DNA of 64,000 nt, from positions 15,279 through 79,278 of the IMG/VR virus record IMGVR_UViG_3300031965_000009, one strand, 5' to 3'. Shown piece by piece: positions 3,638 to 64,000 of the stretch. Under the pieces are notes generated by a model, which searched no databases, was not told the origin of the DNA, and saw only the letters and a program-made list of their open reading frames with translations. Within the stretch, counting starts at the first letter, position 1; every line of letters starts with the position of its first letter. Made by a program: the position numbers and the translations under genes. The stretch comes from a virus. Taxonomy: Duplodnaviria > Caudoviricetes.

Positions 3638-3922
3638 TTATCTTCGCCATGTCAACCTCGCAAGCCATGCGCCGGCCAGTCCAGCGGCAACGATAACTGG
3701 TAGAAGGGACGGGGAGAGGACTAACGAATACCCCATAATTAGGGCAAGGATATACGTTGCCAGCACGGCCATGCCCTCACCGTCGTCATCCCAAAGCATG
3801 GTAAACATCATGATCAATGAAGCCAGCAACCACATGATGCCCCATGAATTGTTAAGCTCATACATGGCCGCTGTGCCGAAGGCCATGATAATCATTGGTT
3901 GAATGAACCATCTTGTATTCAT
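3638..3922 (-). CDS. small multi-pass membrane protein
   Basis: Mostly hydrophobic 94 aa ORF; ATGA-type overlap with upstream gene. Confidence 0.6.
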   Translation of the reverse strand: MNTRWFIQPMIIMAFGTAAMYELNNSWGIMWLLASLIMMFTMLWDDDGEGMAVLATYILALIMGYSLVLSPSLLPVIVAAGLAGAWLARLTWRR

Positions 3923-4104
3923 GCTTCCGGCCCTCCATTGCTAATACCACGGAATAACCTGGCATTGGTGCGCATGCTTGCTCGTGCTACCATGCCCATG
4001 ACCTTGTAGAAAATTAACAAGGCTATGATCATGGCCACAAGGTTAATGCCTATCATGGCAAGCATGTATAGGATAACAGATAGTAAAGTAATTGTTACAG
4101 TCAT
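3919..4104 (-). CDS. small membrane protein
   Basis: Hydrophobic N-terminal half; GGAGG SD. Confidence 0.55.
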   Translation of the reverse strand: MTVTITLLSVILYMLAMIGINLVAMIIALLIFYKVMGMVARASMRTNARLFRGISNGGPEA

Positions 4105-4426
4105 TGTCTAACCTCCATAAAAGATATACTGGTTACCGGCTATGAGATACAGCAAGCCAATAACTCTTAGTTTGAATTCACGCTCCTTGTCTTTTTCTGC
4201 AATACTCCCAAGAGTATTCAGAAGAGACAAGACTAGCAGGGCAATACCAAGAACATCAAACACTGTTTCCATTCTACATTTCTCCTTTAACTAATGCCCA
4301 TGCTCAATGCGCAGAGCATGCAAGGCAATCTCCAATAAGACAGGCAACCACGGCCACTCCTCTCCCATGTAATACCTGGCCTGCATGTACAGCAGGCTAA
4401 GATTAAACAGCATGTCACACCTCCAT

Positions 4427-4858: not shown

Positions 4859-5215
4859 TTAAACTCTTGGGGCATTTTCAAACATGCACTTATTGTTATT
4901 TAAGACCTGCACTACTTCTCTGCACACATTATAAAACCCACCTCCTTCTATGCCGAACTCGCTCATATACTGTCTTAAGACTTCTCGGCTCCACCCCTCG
5001 TTGCTATTAAACCACACGAGTAATGATGAATGCTTAGCCGCTCCCCTTTCTGGTCTTATACCAACCAACCTGTATTCACCACTGTTCATTATCTCTTCAA
5101 GCATGTCCTTGCTGAAGCAATATCCAGTTTCGCATGGCCCAAGAAAGCGCATGTCTTTGCATGGTACGATAAGCTCGTACTCGTCATACCTTTTGCCAGT
5201 CTTTATAATGCTCAT
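4859..5215 (-). CDS. hypothetical protein
   Basis: ATGA overlap with upstream gene; operon context. Confidence 0.6.
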   Translation of the reverse strand: MSIIKTGKRYDEYELIVPCKDMRFLGPCETGYCFSKDMLEEIMNSGEYRLVGIRPERGAAKHSSLLVWFNSNEGWSREVLRQYMSEFGIEGGGFYNVCREVVQVLNNNKCMFENAPRV

Positions 5216-5469
5216 GTTTCACCCCCTTGCTCGTACCAGCCTGTTTCCTTCAATGCCTGGAATAGGTCAGGGAATTCATGCTCTCCGGCTGCTTGCATGG
5301 CAAGCTCTTGGTCGCCCAGCGACCCAGATTTTTGACGCAGATATGGCCCTATTTCTTCTGCCTCTAGCCAGCGATTATACTGCCTGGGCTTCATGCCGCA
5401 TGTGTGCTTGATGATATTCCCCTTTGGTACACGCCGCTGATTTCTATTGAGCTTGATGTACTTCGTCAT
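5212..5469 (-). CDS. hypothetical protein (N-terminus resembles 12663..12851)
   Basis: GGAGG SD, coupled start; shares I.L.RNQ.R.P motif. Confidence 0.6.
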   Translation of the reverse strand: MTKYIKLNRNQRRVPKGNIIKHTCGMKPRQYNRWLEAEEIGPYLRQKSGSLGDQELAMQAAGEHEFPDLFQALKETGWYEQGGET

Positions 5470-12662: not shown

Positions 12663-12851
12663 CTATAAACATGCTTCACCTCCTGTCATGTCCGGCATGG
12701 TTCCATGCTTCTTCATTTCACTCATTGCCATACCCCAGGCATCCATGACAGCATATTTGCTATCATGGTTTTTCCATGCCTCTTTCTTCTTGGGCATGAC
12801 ATGGCCAGGCATTCTCTTTTGATTACGTTTAAGATATATTGCTTGCTTCAT
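12663..12851 (-). CDS. hypothetical protein
   Basis: AAGGAGAAATGAA-ATG start. Confidence 0.55.
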   Translation of the reverse strand: MKQAIYLKRNQKRMPGHVMPKKKEAWKNHDSKYAVMDAWGMAMSEMKKHGTMPDMTGGEACL

Positions 12852-13049
12852 TTCATTTCTCCTTTATGTATAAAATCCATATTCTGTGATTGCATCAATA
12901 AGAAGGTCTATGATTTCCACGATCTCCTCCTTGTCTTTGCCAACGAGCATATCTGCTACGGCATTCGTATCAAGTGGGTCTACTGCATCACCGTATTTTT
13001 TAATCCAATTATCGAACATGTCCATTCTCCTTATAACTAAGCAAACACA

Positions 13050-13274
13050 TTACGAGCAACCCCATGCCGGTATAACACACCCGGCCCATCTAACATAGCC
13101 GTTACCGAACATGGCCCAACCATCACCGCTATAATCTACGCTGTTGTGGTCGTCCACCCAACATGCAGCATAGCAAAAATCAATACGTACACTGCCATCA
13201 TCGGCGAACATGTGCACGTTCACCTGCCCTGCCAGAAGCGAGAGCATGATTATCAACAGGATAACAAGCTTCAT
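13050..13274 (-). CDS. small secreted Cys-containing protein
   Basis: MKLVILLIIMLSLLAG signal-peptide-like N-terminus. Confidence 0.55.
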   Translation of the reverse strand: MKLVILLIIMLSLLAGQVNVHMFADDGSVRIDFCYAACWVDDHNSVDYSGDGWAMFGNGYVRWAGCVIPAWGCS

Positions 13275-13300
13275 GTTTCATTCTCCTTTGTACTAGCAAG

Positions 13301-13642
13301 CTAAAATAATTTTGCATGTAAAGCGTACTGTTCGGCCGCAGTTTTTTCTTTAGGCGTGAAGGCTTCGTCGGCCGATATGCTTGGGAGGATTACTGTGAAA
13401 TCCTTATAATCCTCATTGTAATACACCATGATATTGCCGGTCGTGCACTCCATAAGCCCTCCGTCGCCCATGTACACTTGCAGTTCAACATTCCCATCTT
13501 GATTGACTGGAACTTCATAGTACGTGCCATGATCTTTCGGCATGTCAATAACTGTTTTTCTGATCATGTGTGGTTGTTGATTGCGAAAACTAACTGCAAG
13601 CTCTCTTGCCTTTTGCGATGCTGTTTTTTCTAACATGTTCAT
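13301..13642 (-). CDS. hypothetical protein, first gene of the left-arm operon
   Basis: AAAGGAGAATGAAC-ATG start, directly after a terminator hairpin. Confidence 0.65.
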   Translation of the reverse strand: MNMLEKTASQKARELAVSFRNQQPHMIRKTVIDMPKDHGTYYEVPVNQDGNVELQVYMGDGGLMECTTGNIMVYYNEDYKDFTVILPSISADEAFTPKEKTAAEQYALHAKLF

Positions 13643-13661
13643 TCTCCTTTATGCCTCCTGA

Positions 13662-13687
13662 AATATAAAAGCCCATGCCACATGGGA
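13662..13687 (-). terminator. terminator-like hairpin upstream of the first left-arm gene
   Basis: Minus strand CCCATG-TGG-CATGGG-CTTTTATATTT. Confidence 0.5.
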
Positions 13688-14044
13688 GACTTCATGCTGC
13701 ATGGGCATGAAGCATGGTTATCGTACATGCACCGGGTCGAGACATGTCCCGGACGCCAGTCCTGTGATTCACCTGGTTCTCGTGAGGGGGTAGAGTTTAC
13801 AGGTTACTCAGGACGAGGGCTTGTGCCCCTCACCTGCTCTCGGTAGCGTACATGCCTGACCGTTATGCTGGCTACTTAATAGCTTGCAGAAAAGTTTTTG
13901 CCATGTACGCCATACTCATGTTGTCACTTGTCATGTGACATACTACTAGACGTATTCTTTTGTGCGTTATATGCACACACCGTTATATCAAAAATGATAA
14001 AACGTGCATATTAATACCCCGCAATTTTTCATGCGTCATGCCCC

Positions 14045-14238
14045 GGCCTTGCTAGGGCCAGCGCATGAGCCATTCTGGATGGCGAAGGTGTATATTGGCA
14101 GCATGGTAAGGCATACCATGTCTTCAGCGCAGGGACGGCGTGCTCATGCACGACCGAGTGTTCGGGTTGTGTGCATGTCGGCCTCTGTGTGGGCGGAGTG
14201 AAGTCATGCAAGCATGACTCTGTAGCAGTGCGGCTACA
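14045..14238 (+). ncRNA. candidate structured non-coding RNA (train of six hairpins)
   Basis: Stems at 14045-59, 14069-83, 14102-20, 14145-77, 14202-19 and 14221-38; no credible CDS. Confidence 0.4.
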
Positions 14239-14619
14239 ATCCGTGTGCGCCTAGCTCTTTTGTCTCTACATGGGGTGTTCCTCACCGCCACGCCAGCTTA
14301 TGATTTCGCCGACGTTCTCTATGACTTAAACCACTCGCCTCATCCTGGTACGCCTCTTACGCCTGTTCGTTTTGTCGCTTGGTGAATTACGCTAGTTCGT
14401 TGTGTGCATTCTTATGCACCATGCTTACAAACCCATGCACGCATTTGTCGTTTCCTAGCTACACAGTCACACGACAGAGTGTAGGCTGGCAATTTCTGTA
14501 CCATTCAGCACATGATCTGAAATCATGTTGCGCTCTGGTGTCATGCCTGTTACATGTGCATGTAAAGGTCATGCGTCTCAAGAGATTGAGTCAACTTTTG
14601 TCAAGTATGTGACGAGCAG

Positions 14620-14648
14620 TTGACGCTCATTGTGTGTGCATATAACAT
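14620..14648 (+). promoter_or_regulatory. possible sigma70-type promoter
   Basis: TTGACG-17 bp-TAACAT. Confidence 0.35.
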
Positions 14649-14687
14649 GTAAAAAGGTCATGAAAAATGACCCAACCACGCGCCATC

Positions 14688-14737
14688 TATGCGTGTACAT
14701 GTGCGCATGTGTACGCGCGTGCATGTGTGCGTGCATG
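14688..14737. repeat. 50-nt perfect purine/pyrimidine alternation
   Basis: tatgcgtgtacatgtgcgcatgtgtacgcgcgtgcatgtgtgcgtgcatg alternates Y/R at every position. Confidence 0.9.
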
Positions 14738-14757
14738 AGAGAGGGCATGGTGTCATG

Positions 14758-14857
14758 TGTACACTATCTGTACTCGTGAGAGTACTGGCTGATAGTGTAC
14801 ATTTTCTGATTGGAGTCAATCAGGGGATAGGGGAAAGAAAAGGATTGGAGACAATCC
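14758..14857. repeat. nested inverted repeat plus two GATTG-GAGW-CAATC hairpins
   Basis: TGTACACTATC (14758-68) / GATAGTGTACA (14791-801) enclosing GTACTC/GAGTAC; TGATTG-GAGT-CAATCA (14807-22); GGATTG-GAGA-CAATCC (14842-57). Confidence 0.8.
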
Positions 14858-15080
14858 CTACTCCCTTCCCCACCCAACATTTTAACAGGTTTTTTATCGG
14901 AGTCAACCCCCAAAAAGGAAAGGGAGGGAAAATGAAGGGAAAACAGCAACAGCCAGAACGGCCGATAATTTTTGCCCTTCCTATTAAATAGAAAAGGGGG
15001 AATTTAACCGGGGTTAACATTTTTTGAACCGACGTTCAGTTCTTCAGCCTCTTAAAATAGCAGAAAATTCTAGCCAATGC

Positions 15081-15119
15081 TGTAAAGTAGTTTACAAAAA
15101 AACTGTAAAATGCTTTACA
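15081..15119. promoter_or_regulatory. tandem palindromic operator-like sites TGTAAA-N4-TTTACA
   Basis: TGTAAAgtagTTTACA (15081-96) and TGTAAAatgcTTTACA (15104-19), upstream of the island ORF. Confidence 0.6.
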
Positions 15120-15284
15120 GCAATGGGTATTGATTGGCTGTATTGTATTGGCAACTGACCGACAAACGGCCGATAGCTAGACAACCTTAACAACAGAATA
15201 TGACCTATAGATTAATGGTTGGCATTATTATTTTAATGTTTTTGTGCGATAACACTATCGCTTATCCTTATGGAGAAAAATAAA

Positions 15285-16124
15285 ATGTCAACAATTAATT
15301 TACAAGATTTAATCGCTGTATTGCAAGGCATGGTACAACCAGAACAGGCACAATCCGTACCTACGCCAACATTGCCAACACCGACGCAACCAGCACGGCC
15401 GGCGGTCAAACCAGCGGCGCAAAAAAGCACGCACATTATCTACGCTTTACACCCCACCGGTTTAGTGCAAATTGGTGAAGTTGCCAATTATGGCAATGTT
15501 GCCTACGTTTCAAGCTCGCAGCAAAAGCATGAGCTTTGGCAAAACGCCAGCAATCTCACCGCTGGCTTAACACGTGAACAGCTTAACATCTTTGCAATCG
15601 CCAGAACGGCCGACGGACAGCCAATCATCTCAAGCAAGTCTGGTACCGTACGGACTTGGGCTTGTGGGTGCGGCCGCTTTGAACCGGGAAACACTTGCCG
15701 CTATGCCAAAAAGAACAAGCTAGCTTGTGCTGTTTCAAGCCAGCCAGGTGCAACCCAGGCGTCACCCCCAGCACGGCCAATCATTGCCGCTCCTGTACCT
15801 GTACCAGTAAACGTGCAAGTGGCAATGCCAAAGCCAAACAAACCGGCTACGCTTTCGGCGGCAAATTACACTTCTCAAGCATGGCCAAAACTCATCAACA
15901 AACAATGGCTTGACGCCGGTTATAGTGCGGAATGGCAACGCTCACAAGCCGCCCGCGCCCGCTCTTACCTCATGACTGAGGGAGTAGGGATAAAGGATTT
16001 TTTCAATGATGTATATGGTGAAAAATTCACTGAGTTGTCTTACCCCCACATGATCGACGCGGCCGTACAAGTATCGTCCGAGTCTGAGCGGGCAAACAAA
16101 TTCACTCCCGCTCCTATCAACTAG
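15285..16124 (+). CDS. hypothetical protein with SWIM-like Zn finger and Pro-rich linkers
   Basis: GGAGAAAAATAAA-ATG; WACGCGRFEPGNTCRY (CxC-x8-C, with Tyr at the usual His); PTPT and PVPVP linkers. Confidence 0.7.
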   Translation: MSTINLQDLIAVLQGMVQPEQAQSVPTPTLPTPTQPARPAVKPAAQKSTHIIYALHPTGLVQIGEVANYGNVAYVSSSQQKHELWQNASNLTAGLTREQLNIFAIARTADGQPIISSKSGTVRTWACGCGRFEPGNTCRYAKKNKLACAVSSQPGATQASPPARPIIAAPVPVPVNVQVAMPKPNKPATLSAANYTSQAWPKLINKQWLDAGYSAEWQRSQAARARSYLMTEGVGIKDFFNDVYGEKFTELSYPHMIDAAVQVSSESERANKFTPAPIN

Positions 16125-16162
16125 CTAACAAGCTAGACTAGCCAATCATTAATCATAGGTCG

Positions 16163-16210
16163 AAAACAAAAAAGCCAATCATGTAAAAGCATGATTGGCT
16201 TTTTTGTTTT
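16163..16210. terminator. bidirectional intrinsic terminator
   Basis: Perfect 21-bp inverted repeat AAAACAAAAAAGCCAATCATG / CATGATTGGCTTTTTTGTTTT with a 6-nt loop. Confidence 0.85.
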
Positions 16211-16233
16211 CTAGGCAATTTGAAAACTGCCTA

Positions 16234-16262
16234 TTGACAAGTTAAAAAGTTTGTGCTACCCT
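16234..16262 (+). promoter_or_regulatory. sigma70-type promoter
   Basis: TTGACA-17 bp-TACCCT with extended -10 TGn; follows the terminator and precedes an SD and ORF. Confidence 0.65.
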
Positions 16263-16321
16263 ACCAGCGGGGTGGGTTTGACCAGTTGAAAATTTTATAG
16301 TTTTTAAGAAGAGGTGAAAAG

Positions 16322-16540
16322 ATGTCAACAAAATACATACCAATGTTCCGTCAAGCAACGAGCGATAGCGAAATAGCTAGTGACTGGTATTACAGCCAGT
16401 CAGAATGCCACGCCAACAACCCATATCACTGGTTTGTTGTTGAGCGTCAATTAGTTGAGCATTTTTCCATAGGCAATATTGCATACTGCACGGAAAAGAT
16501 AGCCGAACAGGTTATCGGTTCTGATGGTAGAAGAAAATGA
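16322..16540 (+). CDS. hypothetical protein
   Basis: GAGGTG SD downstream of the promoter. Confidence 0.6.
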   Translation: MSTKYIPMFRQATSDSEIASDWYYSQSECHANNPYHWFVVERQLVEHFSIGNIAYCTEKIAEQVIGSDGRRK

Positions 16541-16686
16541 CAATTCAGGAAATAAACGCACAATACGCAAGCAAGACGGCACAAGAAAAAGAGCAAGATT
16601 TCATGCTCTTGACGCAAGCATTGATCAAGATAGCAGGCATGTACAGCAGGGGACAATGGATCCCTGGCGGTAGAATTAGTTTATAG
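16537..16686 (+). CDS. 49 aa hypothetical protein (below ORF-track cutoff)
   Basis: ATGA overlap; MTIQEINAQYASKTAQEKEQDFMLLTQALIKIAGMYSRGQWIPGGRISL. Confidence 0.5.
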   Translation: MTIQEINAQYASKTAQEKEQDFMLLTQALIKIAGMYSRGQWIPGGRISL

Positions 16687-16714
16687 TTTTTTATAGTTTG
16701 AATGGAGAAATAAA

Positions 16715-16855
16715 ATGTTTTTAGTAGCCTTGGTTTTTGTTCTTTTCTTCTTTGCCCTATGGTATGCCTTGAGCATTGGCTTAATCACACTGGGGACGCT
16801 TATTGTAGCATTTGCAATACTGGGGATAGCTGGCTTGATAGTCATGATGAGCTAG
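16715..16855 (+). CDS. 46 aa membrane peptide
   Basis: GGAGAAATAAA-ATG; almost entirely hydrophobic (MFLVALVFVLFFFALW...). Confidence 0.55.
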   Translation: MFLVALVFVLFFFALWYALSIGLITLGTLIVAFAILGIAGLIVMMS

Positions 16856-16911
16856 ATCAGCCTGCTAGACAACTAAATAAGGTATCGGCCGGAACCGACA
16901 ACACAAACCCT

Positions 16912-16940
16912 AGCCTATCTTACCAGATAGGCTTTTTTTT
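16912..16940 (+). terminator. intrinsic terminator closing the island operon
   Basis: AGCCTATCT-TACC-AGATAGGCT followed by a T tract. Confidence 0.8.
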
Positions 16941-17126
16941 GCTTGCTTGTCACTCCCTCCCCTAGCTCATGCCTACCATGTCCCCTGAGCTATTCTTTGC
17001 CACCTAGAGGCGTTGATTATACCTTAAACGATAATAAACGCCTTAGAACCAATCCTAGCCTACTCCTAGCCTGAATGACATGCTCTTGACTCATGCTCCT
17101 GTCTAGTCAATGCTTTAATGTTAAAG

Positions 17127-17553
17127 CATGTCAGCATGATACAAGTAACAGGTTAAACATGGTCTAGCATGGGGGACAAGCATGTCAGGCATGGCCTAGC
17201 AAGCATGAAAAGCATGGGTGCATGGCATGTCATGCACCCATGCTTGCCATGCCATGCAAGCATGAACATGACATGGACAAAACATGGACAAAGCATGTGC
17301 ATGTGGGTCCCATGCCATGCTTGCATGGAGGCATGGGACATGCGCCATGCCCCATGGTCATGCCCCAAAAACATGCCATTTTCATGCACTTACTTGACAT
17401 AATCATGCTGGTAGTCATGCTACATGCTACATGTTTCATGCTAGTATCATGATGTTTTTATTCTTTAATGAAGTACATGGAGGCATGCTAGGCATGTAAA
17501 CATGCTCATGACATGCTCATGAGCATGTTCATGGACAGGCAAACATGCGCATG
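17127..17553. repeat. CATG-saturated non-coding array
   Basis: About 47 CATG by manual count in ~430 bp; random expectation is about 2. Confidence 0.9.
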
Positions 17554-17644
17554 CGAGTGTGTTATAAGAATTTTAGCTTGTTTTTTGTGATAAGGCAAGG
17601 GCATGGGGTGATAGCTGCCGCGAAAATTAGAAACATTCATGAAA

Positions 17645-17662
17645 CTCTAATGTAATGTTCTA
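17645..17662. repeat. dispersed 18-bp repeat, copy 1
   Basis: CTCTAATGTAATGTTCTA, identical at 36438-36455 and 36517-36534. Confidence 0.85.
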
Positions 17663-17709
17663 ATATCACGGCATGGCAGGGAATGTTATGTAACATGCGG
17701 CATGTTAGA

Positions 17710-18135
17710 TCATGCGTGCTTGTTCATGCTCATGTCGAGCATTTTTGTTGTTGAATACACGCCGCTGGTGGAGGATGGCATTCGCCGGACTACATTGTCA
17801 TCAAGGATCGCAATGATAGCTTCGTCGAATTCTGTGTGTTGGTCGTACCCCAAGACATAAAGGTCAAGGGCAGAATTGGCTATTTGCATTACATCATCGT
17901 CCCCGCACAGGAGAATAACCTCTGACACCGAGGGAACAAGTAACAAGTTTCTAGCCCTCGTCTCCTGGTTATAATATGGCCGCCTGCCCTTATTGTTCTC
18001 GACTGTAGCGTCTGACACAACAAACACAACCAATTCTTCTCCAAGAGAAGAACAGAACTCCAGCATGGAAATATGTCCTGGATGAAGGATGTAGTCGTAT
18101 GTTCCACATGTCCCAACTCTTTTTATTTTATTCAT
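17710..18135 (-). CDS. cytidylyltransferase-like nucleotidyltransferase (TagD/RibL-like)
   Basis: GTYDYILHPGH (HxGH motif), VSD...NKGRRPYYNQETR, LGYDQ. Confidence 0.85.
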   Translation of the reverse strand: MNKIKRVGTCGTYDYILHPGHISMLEFCSSLGEELVVFVVSDATVENNKGRRPYYNQETRARNLLLVPSVSEVILLCGDDDVMQIANSALDLYVLGYDQHTEFDEAIIAILDDNVVRRMPSSTSGVYSTTKMLDMSMNKHA

Positions 18136-18139
18136 ATCT

Positions 18140-18346
18140 TCATGCTCCTAGCTCCTTCCATGTTATAAAGTACTTGTCATGCTTTTCGTCTGTAAGCTCA
18201 ATGCCATGCTCTTGAACGCTTACACTAACCATGCCTTGCCCCTCCCATGTTGCATGGCTCATGCACCATGCAAAGAGCATGTTTGTCATCTCCTCCCACT
18301 TCAGCCATTCCTCTGGTTTGAAGCTATCTTTTGTTATCATTATCAC
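18140..18346 (-). CDS. hypothetical protein
   Basis: Coupled ORF with GAGGTG SD. Confidence 0.5.
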   Translation of the reverse strand: MIMITKDSFKPEEWLKWEEMTNMLFAWCMSHATWEGQGMVSVSVQEHGIELTDEKHDKYFITWKELGA

Positions 18347-18795
18347 CTCTCGGAACTAGAACTCATAACAAAGAGTTCGTCATGTATTTCCTTGTTGCTT
18401 TTCTTCCATTTGTTAGACCGGAGCTTGTCCAGGTACCTGCGATTGCCAATAAGTGCTGACGCCAAACCATTTCTAATCGAAGATTCGCTTGGTTCGTACC
18501 AGCCGTCTATGGCAAAGTATCTGCCGTACCTGGCGCTGTATGCATCATTGATTGTGCTCTTTACCCAGTAGTCTGTCCAGGCATGCTCAACGTTCTTGTA
18601 CACATACCACATGGTTCTGTCGTCTACGGTGGCGATGTATTCCATGATAAACTTCATGTCTCCATGCCCAAAGTCTTCCGGCCATGCTTCAACCGGCCAT
18701 GAACGCAAGGCCCATGGTTCTGCCTTGCGTTTTAATGACAGGAGGACATGATACCCATGCGGTAGTTTTATGTCTGTCTCTAGGTTTACTATCAT
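18343..18795 (-). CDS. hypothetical protein
   Basis: Start moved to ATG 18795 (ATGA overlap). Confidence 0.55.
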   Translation of the reverse strand: MIVNLETDIKLPHGYHVLLSLKRKAEPWALRSWPVEAWPEDFGHGDMKFIMEYIATVDDRTMWYVYKNVEHAWTDYWVKSTINDAYSARYGRYFAIDGWYEPSESSIRNGLASALIGNRRYLDKLRSNKWKKSNKEIHDELFVMSSSSER

Positions 18796-19064
18796 GCTAC
18801 CACCCATGCCGGCATGTCTCCATGCTCCCATTCTCTAGCCCTGTCTACAACGTAATCAGGCGCAGGATCATGCGGGTCTATCTCGCAGATAGCATTGAAT
18901 TCAGCTTCTTTCATCCAGTCTTCCCCATACAAGTCCCTGCACAGTGCCTGCCCCCAATCCCATGACTTACCATTGATGTCATGCACCGTACCGCCATGCG
19001 CCCTACTCATCCTTGATACCCATTCTATCAGGTACGCCCATGTGTCATGTAAGTTGTTATTCAT
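18792..19064 (-). CDS. hypothetical protein
   Basis: GGAGTG SD. Confidence 0.55.
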   Translation of the reverse strand: MNNNLHDTWAYLIEWVSRMSRAHGGTVHDINGKSWDWGQALCRDLYGEDWMKEAEFNAICEIDPHDPAPDYVVDRAREWEHGDMPAWVVA

Positions 19065-21288: not shown

Positions 21289-21510
21289 TCATTGCTTAAC
21301 CTCCATAAGGCATGGTCTTTGTTCTCTGGCCATTCTTCTGATGTCTTCACCAATATGTGAAGCAAATATGTCATCCCATCTCCTCATGCTATCATATATC
21401 TCATAGGCGCTGCTGAAAGCATCGGCGCATGCCTGCATGGTGATACCAAATCCATTGATAACTCTTACGGCCTCTGTTGCCATTCTCGTTAGCTTATCAA
21501 GATCGTCCAT
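21289..21510 (-). CDS. hypothetical protein
   Basis: AAGGTG SD. Confidence 0.5.
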   Translation of the reverse strand: MDDLDKLTRMATEAVRVINGFGITMQACADAFSSAYEIYDSMRRWDDIFASHIGEDIRRMAREQRPCLMEVKQ

Positions 21511-22427: not shown

Positions 22428-22646
22428 TTATCTTTTCTCCATGGGGCATGGTTTCTCTTCCACGAACCCGTCATTCCATCTCGGCCCCGGCTGATACCCC
22501 CAGATGTACCTTCCACCATCTGCCCACCAATCGCCTGTTTCATGATACGATATATAGTATTCGTTCAGACTCCTTGCCAACATACTACGAAAGTCCTCAG
22601 TCTTGACACCAACCCTTACTGTAATAAGTGTTTTATCGGACTTCAT
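22428..22646 (-). CDS. hypothetical protein
   Basis: GGAGGTG SD. Confidence 0.55.
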   Translation of the reverse strand: MKSDKTLITVRVGVKTEDFRSMLARSLNEYYISYHETGDWWADGGRYIWGYQPGPRWNDGFVEEKPCPMEKR

Positions 22647-22944
22647 TCTTCACCTCCATCATACACCTATAATCTATGAACTCAAGCTTACTTCCAAACA
22701 CAAAGTTAGCCCTAGTTTCATCTAGCATGATATGCTCTACTGGTACAGATAGGTCTTGCTTGTCAAATACAACGATGTAGTCATGTGCATCACTGTTTTG
22801 TTTTGGATTATGGTACATTGAACGTCTTGCTACAGCCCAACATATCTGCCCGGCCTTCACCCCGCTAGGGTCATTACTAACAACCCTCACCTTCTGTACT
22901 TCAATGGCCCCAAACCCCCTGTAGTCATGTATTGCGTTCGGCAT
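22633..22944 (-). CDS. hypothetical protein, paralog of 22925..23257
   Basis: Collinear shared motifs (IHDY, VRV, DY.VF.K, LEFI, CMMEVKN). Confidence 0.65.
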   Translation of the reverse strand: MPNAIHDYRGFGAIEVQKVRVVSNDPSGVKAGQICWAVARRSMYHNPKQNSDAHDYIVVFDKQDLSVPVEHIMLDETRANFVFGSKLEFIDYRCMMEVKNEVR

Positions 22945-23257
22945 TCTTAACCTCCATCATGCATTCTTCTGGTATAAACTCCAGGTGTCTTTCGTATACA
23001 TACCCGGCCCTACCAATCCTCATTAATTCATGCAAGGGCAAAGATAGGGCATCCTTTTTGAAAACCATTACGTAATCAACCTCGAGCCGCATCGCTTCGG
23101 TCCTGTCCCTCCCCCTTATCGACTCTATAGCCTTGTGGTTACTCGATACTACCCACCCCATCTTCCCGGCCCCTAGACCCGGCTGCCCGACTGTCACCCT
23201 TACCATTCTTGGCTTGTCTAATGCCTTGTACGAATAGTAGTCATGTATGTTGCTCAT
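22925..23257 (-). CDS. hypothetical protein, paralog of 22633..22944
   Basis: Start moved to ATG 23257 (overlaps the dnaB stop; AAGGAG SD). Confidence 0.65.
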   Translation of the reverse strand: MSNIHDYYSYKALDKPRMVRVTVGQPGLGAGKMGWVVSSNHKAIESIRGRDRTEAMRLEVDYVMVFKKDALSLPLHELMRIGRAGYVYERHLEFIPEECMMEVKNAERNT

Positions 23258-24564
23258 TGTACAATACTCCTTGTTATATTCATGAAGCTTGCCGCCCGTG
23301 GGTTCCAAACAAGCTCAACCGTCCCCACTGAACCATCCCGGTTCTTGGCGACAATGTTTTCCGCCAACTGCTTTCTGCTACTTCCCATGGGGTCATAGTA
23401 ATCATCCCTGTACAGGAATGTAACAGAGTAAGCATCTTGTTCAATGGCTCCTGACCCACGCAGGTCAGCAAGTGTAGGCCGCTTGTCACTCCTGCTTTCC
23501 AGTGACCTGTTTAATTGCGCCGCAAGAATGGACGTTACATCGGCCTCCTTGCTTATCTGTGTCAATCTCTTTGTTATCTTGGCGATGTCGTAGACATCAT
23601 TACCACTGCCCTTGTCAGGCTCCATGAGGTGCAGGTGATCATAGATGATCAGGTCTAATCCATGCACCGCCTTTATCCTGGCTACCTTGGCTCTGGCCTG
23701 TGACGGCGTTAGCCCCCCAGTCTCGTCAAGGAAAAGAGACGAGCTATTAATCTTGTCAACGACAGCATGCACCTTATACATGGCGGCATCACTTAGCTTG
23801 CCGCCCCGCAGCAAGTGCATGTCTATGCCTGTCTCGTGAGCCACAAGCCGCTGGGCCATCTGCTTGGCAGTCATCTCAAGGCTGAAAAACAGCACCCGCT
23901 TGTGCTCGATGAACAGGTTGTGGGCAATCACGCCTGTCAGCCAGGCCGACTTGCCCATGGCCGGCCGAGCGGCAAGGACATGCAGGAACGGGGACGCAAG
24001 TCCACCACCCATGAAGTTGTCATACTCGCTATACCCAGTCCTTGAACCAACCAGTTCACCTTGATCAAAGTAATCAAGGTATTCACTTGCCACCGCCTTA
24101 CCGGTCTTGACATCGCTGTTCACCCTGGTTGTAGAAAGGTCTAGGATAGCGCTTTCGCTTGCGGCTATCTGCTCTTCTAAGTCCCCCCCCTCGTCATAAG
24201 CCAGATTGGCCGTCATGTTGGCCAGGGCAAGTAGCTTCCTTCTGCCGGAGGCATCCTTGATTATCCTGGCATAGTCTTTGGCATTCCATGATGTTGGAGA
24301 AGCGTTAATCAGACCAAGCAAATACCCTTCCCCACCCATGTCTTCTAGCCTTCCACGTTTCCTTAAGTCATCCGTGACAGTGATAAGGTCTACACTCTTG
24401 TTATTATTGTCAAGACTAACAAGCGATTCATATACCCAGGCATTTACCTCCCGGTAAAAGTCTGTAGCCTCAATCTGTACATGCTTGATGGCATCAGGGT
24501 CAATGAGCAATGCCCCCAATAATGCCTCTTCTGCTTCTATGTTATTTGGTGGGCTTTCGTTCAC
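23254..24564 (-). CDS. dnaB: replicative DNA helicase DnaB
   Basis: NIEAEEALLGALL N-domain, Walker A ARPAMGKS, FSLEM, IIYDHLHLM, QLNRSLESRSDKRPTLADLRGSGAIEQDA, AKNRDG. Confidence 0.97.
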   Translation of the reverse strand: MNESPPNNIEAEEALLGALLIDPDAIKHVQIEATDFYREVNAWVYESLVSLDNNNKSVDLITVTDDLRKRGRLEDMGGEGYLLGLINASPTSWNAKDYARIIKDASGRRKLLALANMTANLAYDEGGDLEEQIAASESAILDLSTTRVNSDVKTGKAVASEYLDYFDQGELVGSRTGYSEYDNFMGGGLASPFLHVLAARPAMGKSAWLTGVIAHNLFIEHKRVLFFSLEMTAKQMAQRLVAHETGIDMHLLRGGKLSDAAMYKVHAVVDKINSSSLFLDETGGLTPSQARAKVARIKAVHGLDLIIYDHLHLMEPDKGSGNDVYDIAKITKRLTQISKEADVTSILAAQLNRSLESRSDKRPTLADLRGSGAIEQDAYSVTFLYRDDYYDPMGSSRKQLAENIVAKNRDGSVGTVELVWNPRAASFMNITRSIVQ

Positions 24565-24980: not shown

Positions 24981-25172
24981 CTAAGACAAGACATTACCAG
25001 CCGAGCATTCAAGGACTATCTCGAACGGGCAGGCATGTTTTCCATTCACCTCGAATATCTCCAGCCTGCGCATGGCAAGGTCGGCTATAGTCTCGCGGTA
25101 GACGGGGTCAATGTCGTCGATGTACACATAACTAGTATCACCTTCTTTGTACACCGGGACGTTAATCCTCAT
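24981..25172 (-). CDS. hypothetical protein
   Basis: TAATG overlap with upstream gene. Confidence 0.55.
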   Translation of the reverse strand: MRINVPVYKEGDTSYVYIDDIDPVYRETIADLAMRRLEIFEVNGKHACPFEIVLECSAGNVLS

Positions 25173-25837
25173 TAGTCACACTCCGGGCATGTAATCTCTT
25201 GATCCTCTTCGCATGTTGGCATGTTTTCCCAGGCAGACATGTAGCCGCATTCCTCGCAGATGTACATGTCGTCCCAGCCTGGGAGAATGTACTCCCCACT
25301 AAGGATATTAAAAAGCTTGACGCTGTCAATGCGACCATGATAGTCGCGGACAAGCTTCTCCCATTTTTCTTCATAGAATATTCTCCTGTGCTTACTGCAT
25401 AAGGGGATGGCTTGCGATGGGGAGATGGCGATACTGGTGTTAAAGTACAACCCAATATCGTTACTACCGCACACGCCACACCCCGTTGATATTAGGGCGT
25501 TCATTGAGTCGGGCATGAATATACATAGTTCTTGAAAGCAAGCTGTGCATATATTCCCAGCCTCCCTCTGGAACTCCCCCCACGTCTCTGGGACTACAGA
25601 GTAATCCTTTAGTAGTATGATGCCACAGACGGCACACTTGTCATTGGGGTCACTACCATCGTGACCGACAAGCCTGTATATCCGTATGTCAGCATCTCTG
25701 ATGTCAACCTGTGTCCTGTTGAACATAGAATAAAAATCGCCGTAGCTTATCCCGGTTTCCTCGATAATCTCGGCGCTTGTCAAACTGCTGTTTTTCAGTA
25801 GATCAGCCACTACGCTTCTTTGTGTGCTGGTACCCAT
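25172..25837 (-). CDS. HTH plus multi-Zn-finger hypothetical protein
   Basis: LTSAEIIEETGIS HTH-like segment; CAVC, CTAC, CGVC, CEEC, CPEC pairs. Confidence 0.6.
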   Translation of the reverse strand: MGTSTQRSVVADLLKNSSLTSAEIIEETGISYGDFYSMFNRTQVDIRDADIRIYRLVGHDGSDPNDKCAVCGIILLKDYSVVPETWGEFQREAGNICTACFQELCIFMPDSMNALISTGCGVCGSNDIGLYFNTSIAISPSQAIPLCSKHRRIFYEEKWEKLVRDYHGRIDSVKLFNILSGEYILPGWDDMYICEECGYMSAWENMPTCEEDQEITCPECD

Positions 25838-26061: not shown

Positions 26062-26090
26062 TTTAATTAAACGTTAATGTGTGATACAAT
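26062..26090 (+). promoter_or_regulatory. late-operon promoter, probably giving a leaderless mRNA
   Basis: TTTAAT-17 bp-TACAAT with TGn extension; ATG lies 7 nt after the -10. Confidence 0.5.
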
Positions 26091-26097
26091 TGATTCT

Positions 26098-26727
26098 ATG
26101 AGGGACACAGCACCAAAGCGAAATGAGATTCAAATACTAAATGACCGCAGGCGAACTGCCCAGCTACTGCTTGAAGGGTACACCCATCAGCAAATACGTG
26201 ATGTACTCGAACAAGAGACTGGAATTACATTGTCGCGTCGTACAATTACCAATGATGTCGGGGCTATCAAGAAAGACTGGGCCGAGCAGCAAAGGGCCAG
26301 CGTCCATGCTCTTGTCAATCAAGAGATTGACAGGCTGGACTTCAGCGAAGCTGAAGCATGGCGGGCATGGCGGGCCTCATGCGGCGACGAGGTTCAGGAA
26401 ACTGTCGAGAAGATAGCCAGGTACATGAAGCAAGAGGATGGCTACGTACCCGACGAGGATGAATACGAATTAAGGGTTCAGCGCGTGACCCAAATAATCA
26501 AGAAGAGCGGTGGCGTAGGCGACCCAAGATTCTTTAATATCATCCTCGACCTACAGAAAGAAAGGCGGAAGCTGCTGGGATTGTATGCGCCAAGCAGGTT
26601 GGGCATTGATGTCACCACCAAGTCGGAAATCATTATCAAGGGCTATGCCGTCAAGGACGTGTCGCCTGACGCATGGCCGTCCCTGCCAAGCAATGACATC
26701 ATCGAGGGAGAGATAGTTGAACGGTAA
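26098..26727 (+). CDS. terminase small subunit-like HTH protein
   Basis: Immediately upstream of terL; N-terminal HTH (LLEGYTHQQIRDVL...SRRTITND); start moved to ATG 26098. Confidence 0.7.
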   Translation: MRDTAPKRNEIQILNDRRRTAQLLLEGYTHQQIRDVLEQETGITLSRRTITNDVGAIKKDWAEQQRASVHALVNQEIDRLDFSEAEAWRAWRASCGDEVQETVEKIARYMKQEDGYVPDEDEYELRVQRVTQIIKKSGGVGDPRFFNIILDLQKERRKLLGLYAPSRLGIDVTTKSEIIIKGYAVKDVSPDAWPSLPSNDIIEGEIVER

Positions 26728-36437: not shown

Positions 36438-36534
36438 CTCTAATGTAATGTTCTATACCATCATGCCTTGCCACCTGTAATGCTCCTGTGTGAAGGCAAA
36501 TAATTCTCTCATCTTCCTCTAATGTAATGTTCTA
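36438..36534. repeat. dispersed 18-bp repeat, copies 2 and 3
   Basis: CTCTAATGTAATGTTCTA at 36438-36455 and 36517-36534. Confidence 0.85.
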
Positions 36535-36709
36535 CTCGCGGCGGAACATTAATACAACATGAGAAAACCGCTAAAATGAACATGAATTATTTGCATTTTT
36601 CTTGACTCCATGATAGCATGTTACATGCTCCTGTCCTGGTATCATGCTCATGCTTTTATTTCTTTTATTATTTCTTTTACATGCTGCATGCTACTAGATC
36701 ATGATCATG

Positions 36710-36898
36710 CTACATGCTCATGTAACATGGGCGTTCGACTTTTTTCAGCATGCTCTTGTGGACAATGCCAAGCTCTGTCTCACCGCAATTGACTTCAACA
36801 AACTGAGTCACGACACTCTCCCTGATAACTACTCCCGTCACTCCTTTGTGACACGGGCATGTAAGCTCCACCCTATCCCCAACGTTAAATTCATTCAT
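36710..36898 (-). CDS. small KOW/SH3-like protein
   Basis: AAGGAGAAAAC-ATG; FNVGDRVELT...GVTGVV. Confidence 0.55.
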   Translation of the reverse strand: MNEFNVGDRVELTCPCHKGVTGVVIRESVVTQFVEVNCGETELGIVHKSMLKKVERPCYMSM

Positions 36899-46108: not shown

Positions 46109-46761
46109 CTAGGTTGACCACTGATGAATTCGTGGACAGGGCAAAGAAAATTCATGGAGACAGATATGACTATTCTTACGTGCATTATAAAAACGCACAT
46201 GAGGATGTTTTAATTATTTGTAGATTACACGGGGAGTTCACTATGGAAGCCACGAATCATATTCACATTCCTCGGGGCTGCCCCATATGCTCCAGGGGCG
46301 GTACAAATATCGAGAGATTTATGTCAAAGATTCGCGAAGGTTCAAACGGGTGCTGGAACTGGATTGGGGGAACTAGGGGTGGAGAGTATGGCGGCTTTTG
46401 GGTTGATGGAAAGACCGTTAGGGCTCACCGTTACTCCTACGAGACATTTGTTGGCTCTATACCCGACGGTCTATCTATACTTCATAAGTGCGACAACCCT
46501 CCATGTGTTAACCCGAATCATTTATTTGCCGGAACCGCATCTGACAACGCAAGGGACATGGTAGACAAGGGAAGAGCACCAGACCAACGAGGGTCAAGCA
46601 ACCCGTGTTCTAAACTAGACGAAGAGTCCGTCGTGAAGATTTCTAACATGATTGACTCTGGAGTGATACAGATTGACATAGCAAGACAGTTCGGCGTAAG
46701 CCCCCAGTTGATAACGGATATAAAAAAAGGAAGGAGATGGTCGTGGTTAACGAGAAGATAG
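46105..46761 (+). CDS. free-standing HNH homing endonuclease
   Basis: TTDEFVDRAKKIHGDRYDYS N-domain; AHRYSY..LHKCDNPPCVNPNHL..DN; TTG start behind GGAGAG. Confidence 0.9.
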   Translation: MTRLTTDEFVDRAKKIHGDRYDYSYVHYKNAHEDVLIICRLHGEFTMEATNHIHIPRGCPICSRGGTNIERFMSKIREGSNGCWNWIGGTRGGEYGGFWVDGKTVRAHRYSYETFVGSIPDGLSILHKCDNPPCVNPNHLFAGTASDNARDMVDKGRAPDQRGSSNPCSKLDEESVVKISNMIDSGVIQIDIARQFGVSPQLITDIKKGRRWSWLTRR

Positions 46762-48266
46762 AACCAATAGTCACGGTTATAATCCCGTGCCATAACAAAT
46801 CGCTAACAATAGCTCGAGCAATAGCTAGTGTGATGGCCCAAACCATCAACAACCTAGAGTGCTTCGTTATAAACGACCGAAGTTCTGATAATTCAGAAGA
46901 GATCATACTAGAAACCATAGGGCACGACAAGAGATTTTCTTATCATGTTGTGGATTACGGCAACGTTGCCACAGTAAGGAATTACGGAATATCCATAGCT
47001 AGCGGCCTATTCTACTGCTGCCTAGATGGAGACGACTGGATAGACCCGCTATTTCTTGAAGAATGCATTCCTCCGCTCCTAGAGGATAGATCGCTCGGAA
47101 TCACATACACCGGACTAGCATATCATAAGCCAGACGGATCGTCAGGACTGAGCAACTGGCCCGGAGAGTACGATTACAACAAACAGCTTGCAAGACAGAA
47201 TCAGGTTCCAACGTGCCATGTCGGAAGAGTTGATATGTGGAAAAGACTTGGAGGGCAAAAGCAAAGATACACTGGTGCCGGAGGCGCTGGAGCAGAAGAT
47301 GCTGAGTTTGTTCTAAGAGCAGGGGCATATGGGTACAATGCTAGAAAAGTCACAACCGCTGGTCTGTTTCATTACTCTTGGATGACTGGACTTGTGTCAG
47401 GCAACAAGGAATACCGCGAGAAAGATTGGCTGTACTGGCATCCATGGACGAAAGATAATGAACATCCAGTCGCCAGCATGGCAACAGCCCGGCGGCAATC
47501 GCACGCATGTCGTCAGTATGATGAACCTGCAATATCTGTTATAATACCTGTTGGGCCTGGACATGCTGGCTACCTTGAAGACGCCCTTGACTCGCTTGAG
47601 GCCCAGACGTTTCGCAAGTGGGAAGCGGTGGTTGTCAATGACAGCGGAGAGGCGTTACCAGAAAGAATCATGAAAGCCTACCCCTACATGCGTCTCGTAG
47701 AGACGAAAGGAAGCATGGGGGCTGGTAAGGCAAGAAACATGGGGGTTAAACGTTCACGTGCGCCTATGATACTTTTCCTTGATTCAGACGACTTCTTGAA
47801 CCCGGAGGCATTGTCTGAAATGCTTTATGCCTGGACTAAGAACGAGGCTATGATATACAGCGATTATTATGGGGTGTCGGTCATAGACGACCCAAGCAAG
47901 TTGGCTGGTGGGATAAAGATTGTCAGCAGAGATGCAAACGGTTTATCCGTCCTGTCATACAGGGCATCTGATTTTGACCAGAACAAGGCCATGCTTCAAC
48001 CAACAGACCCGCCATACCTGTGGTGCAATGTGACAACATTAATGCCAAGAAGGTGGTTTGACGAGGTCGGTGGGTTTGACGAGGCAATGCCAAGCTATGA
48101 AGATTATGACCTGTTCGTCAGACTTGCTAAGGCTGGTAAGTGTTTTTGCCGTATCCCTCAACCACTAATGACCTACAGGTTCATGTCTGGTTCAAGAAGA
48201 GATACAGGCTACAGGATGAAAGAAGAATTATTTCAGTACATGAAAGCAAAGTACAGGATGGAATAG
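46737..48266 (+). CDS. tandem two-domain GT2 glycosyltransferase
   Basis: Two GT-A domains: VTVIIPCHN..INDRS..LDGDD and ISVIIPV..VNDS..FLDSDD..GGFDE..EDYD. Confidence 0.92.
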   Translation: MVVVNEKIEPIVTVIIPCHNKSLTIARAIASVMAQTINNLECFVINDRSSDNSEEIILETIGHDKRFSYHVVDYGNVATVRNYGISIASGLFYCCLDGDDWIDPLFLEECIPPLLEDRSLGITYTGLAYHKPDGSSGLSNWPGEYDYNKQLARQNQVPTCHVGRVDMWKRLGGQKQRYTGAGGAGAEDAEFVLRAGAYGYNARKVTTAGLFHYSWMTGLVSGNKEYREKDWLYWHPWTKDNEHPVASMATARRQSHACRQYDEPAISVIIPVGPGHAGYLEDALDSLEAQTFRKWEAVVVNDSGEALPERIMKAYPYMRLVETKGSMGAGKARNMGVKRSRAPMILFLDSDDFLNPEALSEMLYAWTKNEAMIYSDYYGVSVIDDPSKLAGGIKIVSRDANGLSVLSYRASDFDQNKAMLQPTDPPYLWCNVTTLMPRRWFDEVGGFDEAMPSYEDYDLFVRLAKAGKCFCRIPQPLMTYRFMSGSRRDTGYRMKEELFQYMKAKYRME

Positions 48267-63801: not shown

Positions 63802-64000
63802 TGAGCCTGACTGCTACCGTTAAACCACCCTTGCTTTCAACAGCCTACTCCTTGTCCGCTCAATCCCTGCTTGCCGGCGTGCTGTACGAGAACCTGTTTG
63901 ATTACCAGACGGGCAGGTACAGCCAGACAAGCGGGGCTACAATCGGCTATGATTCCATGACCATGGAGGTGATCTTTTCCGATGCCGAGACAAGGGACTG
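63801..64000 (+). CDS. tail protein, partial (runs off the right edge)
   Basis: TAATG overlap; frame open to the end of the window. Confidence 0.5.
   Translation, partial: MSLTATVKPPLLSTAYSLSAQSLLAGVLYENLFDYQTGRYSQTSGATIGYDSMTMEVIFSDAETRD

Follow-up and report, generated by a model that had tools for sequence, protein, structure and literature searches.

A 64,000-nucleotide window of viral DNA, comprising bases 15279–79278 of the 79,278-bp IMG/VR virus contig IMGVR_UViG_3300031965_000009 (Caudoviricetes), is strongly enriched in the palindromic tetramer CATG, and the enrichment peaks in a non-coding array at window positions 17127–17553, where 47 copies fall within 427 bp. The excess acts at the DNA level, being realised through synonymous sites in all three codon phases, and successive copies lie 6–8 bp apart far more often than expected. 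The trait is found in a single clade of two phages, both of which carry an array at the same position with a conserved centre. The array is tentatively read, with somewhat less than even confidence, as a docking or nucleation array for a reader of the bare CATG word. Positions refer to the window unless the contig is named.

Genome-wide excess of CATG

The contig contains 1056 copies of CATG, 844 of them in the window, which amounts to one per ~75 bp. Markov models of order 0, 1 and 2 predict 309, 556 and 801 copies in the contig, respectively, such that the excess surpasses the mono-, di- and trinucleotide expectations alike, and its z value of 14.2 is the highest among the 256 tetramers. An earlier sequence-only reading of this DNA had named an excess no larger than CA/TG dinucleotide bias would give as grounds for refutation; with 556 copies predicted from dinucleotides against the 1056 counted, that bias is insufficient. 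The enriched unit is the bare tetramer. Its flanks are almost uninformative, each of the top 6- to 8-mers includes CATG, and the four 6-bp palindromes built on it all fall below expectation, with GCATGC present 36 times against 94.5 (0.38 of the expectation from its flanks); CATGCATG occurs once in the contig. Uninformative flanks and rare surrounding 6-bp palindromes would suit a reader of a symmetric 4-bp site. The excess is present in early and late genes alike, and the most depleted tetramers are TATG and CATA (z of −10.5 and −9.5, respectively).

Phages are expected to lose short palindromes, which are cut by restriction enzymes, and avoidance of this type coexists with the CATG excess in the same contig: GATC (132 copies against 309 expected, 0.43x), CGCG (75 against 278, 0.27x) and TGCA (z of −9.1) are all avoided, and CTGCAG and GTGCAC are reduced to two and five copies. 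This phage therefore purges GATC, CTGCAG, GTGCAC and GCATGC, yet pushes CATG near the maximum that its proteins allow and maintains a dedicated array of it, which argues for a positive, density-dependent use of the 4-bp word. We know of no mechanism described for such a use on phage DNA.

Codon usage reveals the same pressure inside genes. The 32 genes of at least 200 amino acids contain 448 CATGs, compared with 254.5 ± 10.8 after synonymous codon shuffling within each gene, and all three codon phases are enriched. Pyrimidine-ending codons that precede ATG end in C in 87% of cases (53% elsewhere), histidine is encoded by CAT before G in 82% (47% elsewhere) and NCA is used before TG in 66% (28% elsewhere); changes occur at all four positions of the word, transversions included. 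The proportion of synonymous opportunities for CATG that are used amounts to 71–87% per gene class, compared with 36–52% in relatives that lack the excess. Saturation is almost reached in core genes (0.8–1.0), as illustrated by the portal (21 of 23 opportunities), the DnaC-like loader (21 of 22) and the M23 peptidase (10 of 10). At the other end stand genes that use 25–46% of their opportunities, a baseline shared with the relatives without the excess, namely those for an HNH homing endonuclease (contig 3694–4236; 1 of 4), a 676-residue late structural protein (51020–53050; 7 of 18) and a double glycosyltransferase (46737–48266; 13 of 28), all three of which are probably recent acquisitions not yet converted. 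The early proteins are richer in methionine, histidine and cysteine (methionine 4.1% versus 2.7%), which raises the potential of their genes for CATG. Two suggestions of the sequence-only reading are supported: that the site is selected for a function, insofar as the synonymous-site tests reveal a DNA-level pressure that acts like selection, and that it resembles the iterated cyanobacterial palindrome HIP1, which is apt as a description.

Spacing is a further property of the word. Successive CATGs lie 6, 7 and 8 bp apart 36, 49 and 36 times, respectively, against ~12–13 ± 3.6 each (z of 6–10) in simulations from an order-3 Markov model that retains the CATG frequency; a distance of 4 bp is found once against 9.8 expected, and distances of 10–11 bp are at expectation. 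The excess at 6–8 bp persists outside the three large non-coding regions (23, 34 and 24 cases), and the longest run in this register, of seven sites, is the conserved centre of the array.

The array and its counterpart in a sister phage

The array and the elements within and beside it are as follows.

17127–17553, no strand: main CATG array, 47 CATG in 427 bp with irregular spacers, non-coding
17203–17252, no strand: 50-bp near-perfect palindrome with 25-nt arms, 88% complementary, no loop
17316–17368, no strand: conserved core, seven CATGs in a 6–8 bp register, the longest such run in the genome
17339–17367, within the conserved core: period-7 tandem-repeat patch CATGCCC
17390–17403, no strand: conserved 14-mer TTACTTGACATAAT, ~22 nt right of the core
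17440–17475, no strand: A+T-rich gap that divides the array into left and right parts
17476–17553, no strand: right sub-array, 11 CATG, with a period-11 patch
16912–16933, plus strand: terminator-like hairpin and T-run that ends the plus-strand island and forms the left boundary of the non-coding gap around the array

The array is placed between the stop codon of the last early gene (17710) and the hairpin at 16912–16933. Its density is 110 CATG per kb, with 44% of the bases inside a CATG, whereas 1.7 copies would be expected from base composition and 5.6 at the rate of the window (Poisson P = 3e-27 at the latter rate). The count given in the sequence-only reading, about 47 copies in ~430 bp against about two expected, is therefore accurate, as is its statement that the array has no repeat unit: Tandem Repeats Finder (TRF) detected only patches of 2–5 copies with periods of 6, 7, 11 and 22, including a second period-7 patch at 17416–17443, and a repeat-family search found no family covering the array. 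Beside these patches and the preference for 6–8 bp, the spacing of the array as a whole is irregular, from 5 to 28 bp.

Stop codons are scarce in CATG-rich DNA, which is why long open frames cross the array on both strands. A coding reading, as a His/Met/Cys-rich peptide, was rejected on account of the even distribution of the sites over the three frames in both phages (14/18/15 here and 15/17/11 in the relative described below), with no frame favoured. As single-stranded DNA the array folds at −110 kcal/mol (z of −7.4 relative to shuffled sequences), a strength that follows from the self-complementarity of the word, and Rfam covariance models run over 13000–19000 returned chance-level matches only, all far below their gathering scores. 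The conserved 14-mer TTACTTGACATAAT includes TTGACA; its reading as a promoter was discarded, since no −10 element lies at a conserved distance and a promoter scan made no call.

The phage's nearest relative, on Logan contig SRR18218241_90750 (78,425 bp), shares 71% identity in the portal and has an observed-to-expected ratio (O/E) for CATG of 3.6–4.4 over 41 kb. In the portal tree the two CATG-rich phages (O/E of 3.4 and 3.6) are sisters with a support of 99/98. The next branch, a 3.3-kb contig, has an O/E of 1.7 and the one after it (L032) of 1.3, while ~28 more distant loci range from 0.7 to 1.8, mostly explained by dinucleotides. Judged by these portal relatives, the CATG excess is limited to the two-member terminal clade. 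Relatives binned in metagenome-assembled genomes come from five unrelated phyla and are not CATG-rich. Five orthologous genes contain 66 CATGs in the window phage, 63 in its sister and 23 in L032, and 52% of the CATG positions in these genes are shared by the two rich phages, compared with 22.5% for all tetramers (rank 2 of 164).

In the relative, an array of 43–45 CATG in ~450 bp occupies the same position: it follows the final early-block gene and precedes an island on the opposite strand that encodes orthologues of the 284-, 46- and 49-residue proteins of the island described below. An A-rich tract directly follows the array. The early genes of the two phages have no protein similarity except for DnaB, three small genes near the terminase and a few far-left genes, and the only homologue of the 284-residue island protein is a weak C-terminal match in the relative. 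The 38-nt centre of the array (17330–17367) is identical at 36 of 38 positions (~95%), letters outside CATG included, and TTACTTGACATAAT at 14 of 14 (L007 13213–13200). This centre is the strongest non-coding blastn match in 7 kb between the two phages (83% over 71 nt, E of 8e-13), the structural genes of which share 57–72% nucleotide identity. Away from the centre the two arrays retain their CATG density but not their sequence, and they differ by many insertions and deletions that are not multiples of three. The presence of the array at the same position in an independent Logan assembly of a related phage makes an assembly artefact unlikely.

Beyond this pair, the 19-nt centre of the array found no match in IMG/VR and five chance matches in JGI metagenomes, none of which is CATG-rich. 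Four CATGs at 7-bp spacing were found in more than 119 stretches of IMG/VR; none of the 80 that were fetched exceeds 20 sites per 400 bp, and their O/E is at most 2.3, except for one 2-kb fragment of 22% G+C at 3.4, with most explained by dinucleotides.

A proposed reader of CATG and the competing explanations

We infer that in this phage lineage CATG may be kept on duplex DNA by selection and read as a bare 4-bp palindrome by a protein. Indeed, the word is palindromic, as are only 16 of the 256 tetramers, which favours a reader of duplex DNA over an RNA motif. The array would act as a non-coding, high-density docking or nucleation array with a sequence-specific centre, and the ~1000 dispersed CATGs would be lower-density targets of the same reader. 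The favoured candidate would be a small dimeric DNA-binding protein, cooperative on neighbouring CATGs at a register of ~7 bp, in the manner of omega, ParG and MetJ; alternatively, the reader may be one that recognises methylated CATG. Occupancy might mark, or coat and shield, the phage DNA, identify it to a nuclease as self, or regulate the junction where the early operon meets the island.

Several points weigh against this proposal. Family searches (RHH_1, Arc, Pfam, PHROGs and Atlas) named no candidate reader, the spacing of the array (5 to 28 bp) is irregular, unlike that of classical operator arrays, and part of the excess of short spacings could arise from local differences in density. 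The trait is present in only two genomes, which lowers the power of comparison, and no benefit that would scale with ~1000 sites is in evidence. A methyltransferase or the reader may also be encoded by the host.

A more far-reaching form of the proposal, to which we give clearly less credence, is that the lineage possesses a genome-wide identity or 'chromatin' code, in which a phage-encoded small protein would load at the 47-site array and spread over sites spaced by ~75 bp. If true, such a code would mark or shield the phage DNA, or separate it from host DNA for a nuclease, and selection would have been strong enough to rewrite ~80–90% of the synonymous opportunities in core genes; the same logic might also account for the GATC excess of B3 mycobacteriophages.

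The search for a ribbon-helix-helix reader yielded with RHH_1 only an E of 0.03 in one 81-residue open reading frame (ORF) far from the array, and nothing with Arc. The island proteins match no family, and the small early proteins that are conserved received no name from Pfam, PHROGs or Atlas. Each CATG-rich phage has two copies of a small-protein family whose basic N-terminal motif, LxRxQ(K/R)R(V/M/I)P, resembles an arginine-rich motif. Among the genes that open the left early block, only the one for its 62-residue member is conserved, and searches with this protein were uninformative as to a reader.

5212–5469, minus strand, and 12663–12851, minus strand: LxRxQ(K/R)R(V/M/I)P family
L046 8434–8646 and L046 15079–15336: LxRxQ(K/R)R(V/M/I)P family

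Lineage-specific iterated palindromes are already known in phages, and it is the extreme array at a shared position with a conserved centre that sets this case apart. In B3 mycobacteriophages, GATC/GGATCC shows a ~4-fold genome-wide excess that is subcluster-specific and was left unexplained by the authors (Siranosian et al., 2015; PMC4841201). A recount in phage Pipefish (DQ398049) gave 826 GATC against 209 expected; in both cases a 4-bp palindrome is ~4-fold over expectation genome-wide in one subclade, although the word and the phage family differ. Unlike in the phage described here, no hyper-dense array exists in Pipefish, where GATC peaks at 13 per 400 bp and is spaced with codon periodicity at 6, 9 and 12; in B3 phages the 6-mer GGATCC is enriched as well, whereas the CATG phage disfavours 6-bp palindromes around its word. 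HIP1 (GCGATCGC) is likewise a lineage-specific palindrome spread genome-wide through synonymous choice, the cause of which, selection or methylation-linked repair, is debated. It is, however, an 8-mer of cellular genomes that is tied to resident methyltransferases, while CATG is a 4-mer with a dedicated non-coding array in a phage where searches of the 79 kb with five Pfam families retrieved no cognate methyltransferase.

The GATC clusters of Escherichia coli oriC/SeqA and of P1 pac are comparable in that a 4-bp palindrome is concentrated locally within non-coding or control DNA. They comprise 7–11 sites in 160–250 bp and come without genome-wide saturation, whereas the CATG array has 47 sites in 427 bp, shows no skew signal, has no methylase found with it and is not near the terminase. 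A likeness in geometry is offered by the ribbon-helix-helix arrays (the omega heptads of pSM19035, the ParG tetramer boxes of TP228 and the MetJ metboxes), in which very short motifs lie 7–8 bp apart from centre to centre; CATG spacings of 6–8 bp occur 3–4 times more often than expected and the centre of the array is a seven-site run. Those arrays consist of 2–12 boxes in strict register beside the gene of the binder, which occupies them side by side. In contrast, the CATG register is loose, the 47 sites are accompanied by ~1000 dispersed ones and no binder was found nearby. Chi sites, read by RecBCD or AddAB, are also short words over-represented genome-wide, the density of which is read by a DNA-processing enzyme; they are 5–8 nt long, asymmetric, orientation-dependent and without arrays, unlike a symmetric 4-bp word with an array.

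The position of the array relative to the replication and packaging genes bears on the alternatives.

23254–24564, minus-strand early block: DnaB helicase
25172–25837, minus strand: conserved 221-residue protein just upstream of dnaB, with an N-terminal helix-turn-helix-like (HTH-like) segment and several Cys-x2-Cys pairs
26077–26727, plus strand: terS, small terminase

Were a host CATG adenine methyltransferase of the NlaIII/HpyI type to mark the sites, the array could function as an origin, pac site or switch controlled by hemi- or full methylation, as in the E. coli oriC and P1 pac GATC clusters, with the dispersed sites serving the same reader. A bare 4-bp palindrome is indeed a typical target of Type II or orphan methyltransferases, and the A+T-rich gap in the array could unwind; in addition, the phage encodes its own DnaB and a DnaC-like loader and no polymerase, and would therefore need an origin that recruits host functions. 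We nevertheless hold this explanation to be unlikely. The DNA methyltransferase families PF02086 (D12), PF01555 (N6_N4), PF05869 (phage Dam), PF05063 (MT-A70) and PF00145 (C5) were all negative on the 79 kb, in which the amino-methyltransferase motif IV, [DN]PP[YFW], is also absent outside a glycosyltransferase. Cumulative GC skew follows gene orientation, with its minimum at ~25.7 kb, where early and late genes diverge, and is flat across 13.7–17.7 kb, and no DnaA box was seen on reading the arrays of both phages, although no search was aimed at it. In both contigs the array is internal; its distance is 6 kb to dnaB and 9 kb to the terminase genes, whereas a pac or cos site would be expected in or beside the small-terminase gene or at the genome ends. 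Furthermore, known methylation-read origins and pac sites lack genome-wide saturation, and a preference for spacings of 6–8 bp is not expected of a methyltransferase target alone. The methylation-read origin envisaged by the sequence-only reading thus found no support, either in the gene content or in the skew. An MT-A70 methyltransferase gene is present in the early block of relatives without the excess (L032 2220–2798, L034 472–1038 and L033 1–32) and was not found in the DNA examined of either CATG-rich phage, a distribution that hints at a different relation to methylation and is as such a point in favour of the methylation explanation.

A non-adaptive drive, in which biased repair or gene conversion turns near-cognate words into CATG, as proposed for HIP1 and for very short patch (VSP) repair at Dcm sites, appears improbable; on this view the array would be DNA free of constraint in which the conversion has reached saturation. 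The most depleted tetramers, TATG and CATA, are precisely those that T:G-to-C:G repair would remove, the contrast between recent-looking genes at baseline and a long-resident core near saturation is the pattern of gradual amelioration, and the sister branch is intermediate at 1.7x. On the other hand, the bias extends to position 3 (CAC to CAT before G) and position 2 (NCN to NCA before TG) of the word, beyond the reach of T:G repair, for which reason VSP repair alone was rejected. Nor does such a drive predict that the other large non-coding regions would be three times less dense than the array, that the position of the array and its 95% identical centre would be kept, non-CATG letters included, or that GCATGC and CATGCATG would be avoided; no Vsr-type or C5-methyltransferase gene was found in the contig. 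Still less probable is a function in RNA, whereby transcripts of the early minus-strand operon would carry the array at their 3' end, its 47 CAUG acting as a sponge or protective tail for an RNA-binding factor that also reads CAUG in mRNAs, on the model of CsrB with its GGA motifs. Read-through transcripts would contain the array if the hairpin at 16912–16933 were a bidirectional terminator, the strand folds strongly, and irregular motif spacing without a repeat unit resembles sponge RNAs; however, an RNA motif has no need of a palindrome, the fold energy is a trivial outcome of self-complementarity, out-of-frame AUGs in phases 0 and 1 are usually costly in mRNA, and neither an Rfam match nor a conserved promoter was found. 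Only the local density of sites would fit a decoy that titrates a host restriction enzyme cutting at CATG, as the sequence-only reading had also proposed, but a phage that faces such an endonuclease should lose its sites, and more than 1000 exposed copies are hard to reconcile with this idea; since GATC (0.43x), CTGCAG, GTGCAC and GCATGC are purged, avoidance operates in this phage, just not on CATG, and we consider the decoy very improbable. Least credible of all is a peptide gene or an assembly artefact: the long open frames on both strands are offset by the even use of the three frames in both phages, by the insertions and deletions out of multiples of three and by the presence of the array in two independent assemblies.

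The array with its 95% conserved centre offers a concrete bait for the proposed reader, and a comparative handle comes from setting the two CATG-rich phages against their relatives that lack the excess. If found, the reader may also explain the decade-old puzzle of GATC in B3 mycobacteriophages and could provide a compact DNA-marking system.

Gene layout and neighbouring elements

The left 26 kb of the window consist of minus-strand early genes, which also encode an M23 peptidase and a cytidylyltransferase-like protein beside DnaB; the genes for a DnaC-like loader, an ATP-grasp ligase and an M28 peptidase are situated further left. The late genes occupy the plus strand from 26077 onwards and comprise the small and large terminase (the latter with inteins), the portal, the capsid and a glycan-gene block. 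The 221-residue protein encoded just upstream of dnaB is a candidate initiator or regulator, on the strength of weak Atlas leads to HTH and Zn-ribbon proteins (scores below 0.85). Neither the region nor the array had a megablast or blastn match among 50,697 phage records; tblastn against cultured phages returned nothing with the portal and only distant matches with DnaB. Portal relatives are numerous in metagenomes, several of them on contigs of 75–81 kb. At the right end of the contig a truncated ORF (63801–63998) resembles the N-terminus of the first ORF at the left end (contig 27–1190), and given these similar ends and the clustering of the relatives' contigs at 75–81 kb, the CheckV completeness of 64% may be too low.

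Other regions of unusual CATG density and an element next to the array are listed here.

13620–14760, no strand: second CATG-dense non-coding region, 39 CATG (P = 2e-7), with clusters at 13674–13729 and 14698–14757
15000–16965, plus strand: plus-strand island, CATG-poor, 10 copies against 26 expected at the window rate
36600–36730, no strand: third CATG cluster, 12 sites (P = 3e-7), in the gap before the glycan-gene block
17645–17662, minus strand: exact 18-mer TAGAACATTACATTAGAG, 4 nt before an ATG

The two additional dense regions, in the first of which no credible ORF was found, had been noticed from the sequence alone, as had the scarcity of CATG in the homing-endonuclease gene and the island, and the counts agree (39 and 12 sites; 1 of 4 opportunities used in the HNH gene and 10 copies against 26 in the island). 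The main array exceeds the remaining large non-coding regions threefold in CATG density. The island, which uses 8 of its 19 synonymous opportunities, lies between two CATG-dense non-coding regions and encodes proteins of 284, 46 and 49 residues, the second of which resembles a hydrophobic 47-residue protein of the relative. Upstream of its first gene stand two 16-bp inverted repeats, TGTAAA-N4-TTTACA, at 15081–15096 and 15104–15119, 23 bp apart; the junction with these repeats is kept in the relative (L007 16089–16109), and the pair looks like a putative operator pair for a repressor.

The 18-mer TAGAACATTACATTAGAG is present in three identical copies, at 17645–17662, 36438–36455 and 36517–36534, all on the minus strand (0.03 expected). 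Every copy adjoins a CATG cluster and precedes an ATG by 4 nt, the ORFs behind them being unrelated; the 44-codon ORF behind the copy at 17645–17662 is not conserved and is reduced to six codons in the relative. TAGAACATTACATTAGAG may be a phage-specific promoter, leader or translational operator.

The C-terminal 'C-x-M' tag of small early proteins coincides with a DNA junction motif, TGCATGATGGAGG followed by AAGAATG, which carries the ribosome-binding site and the start of the next, overlapping gene (for example at 22925–22944, 22633–22660 and 21289–21310). The tag may be a by-product of this translational-coupling signal and, as it coincides with the motif bearing the ribosome-binding site, was set aside as a link to CATG.

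To the left of the island, 13650–15270 forms a stretch of 1.6 kb without a credible ORF, matched in position by a 1.9-kb gap in the relative. The 1.6-kb stretch is bounded by a promoter-like site at 14906–14879 (minus strand, 10 of 12 matches with TG) and a terminator-like hairpin at 13686–13672 (minus strand), and could give a non-coding transcript of ~1.2 kb. Inside this region, 14688–14737 is a perfect alternating purine–pyrimidine tract of 50 nt with Z-DNA potential, the next longest in the window being of 14 nt.

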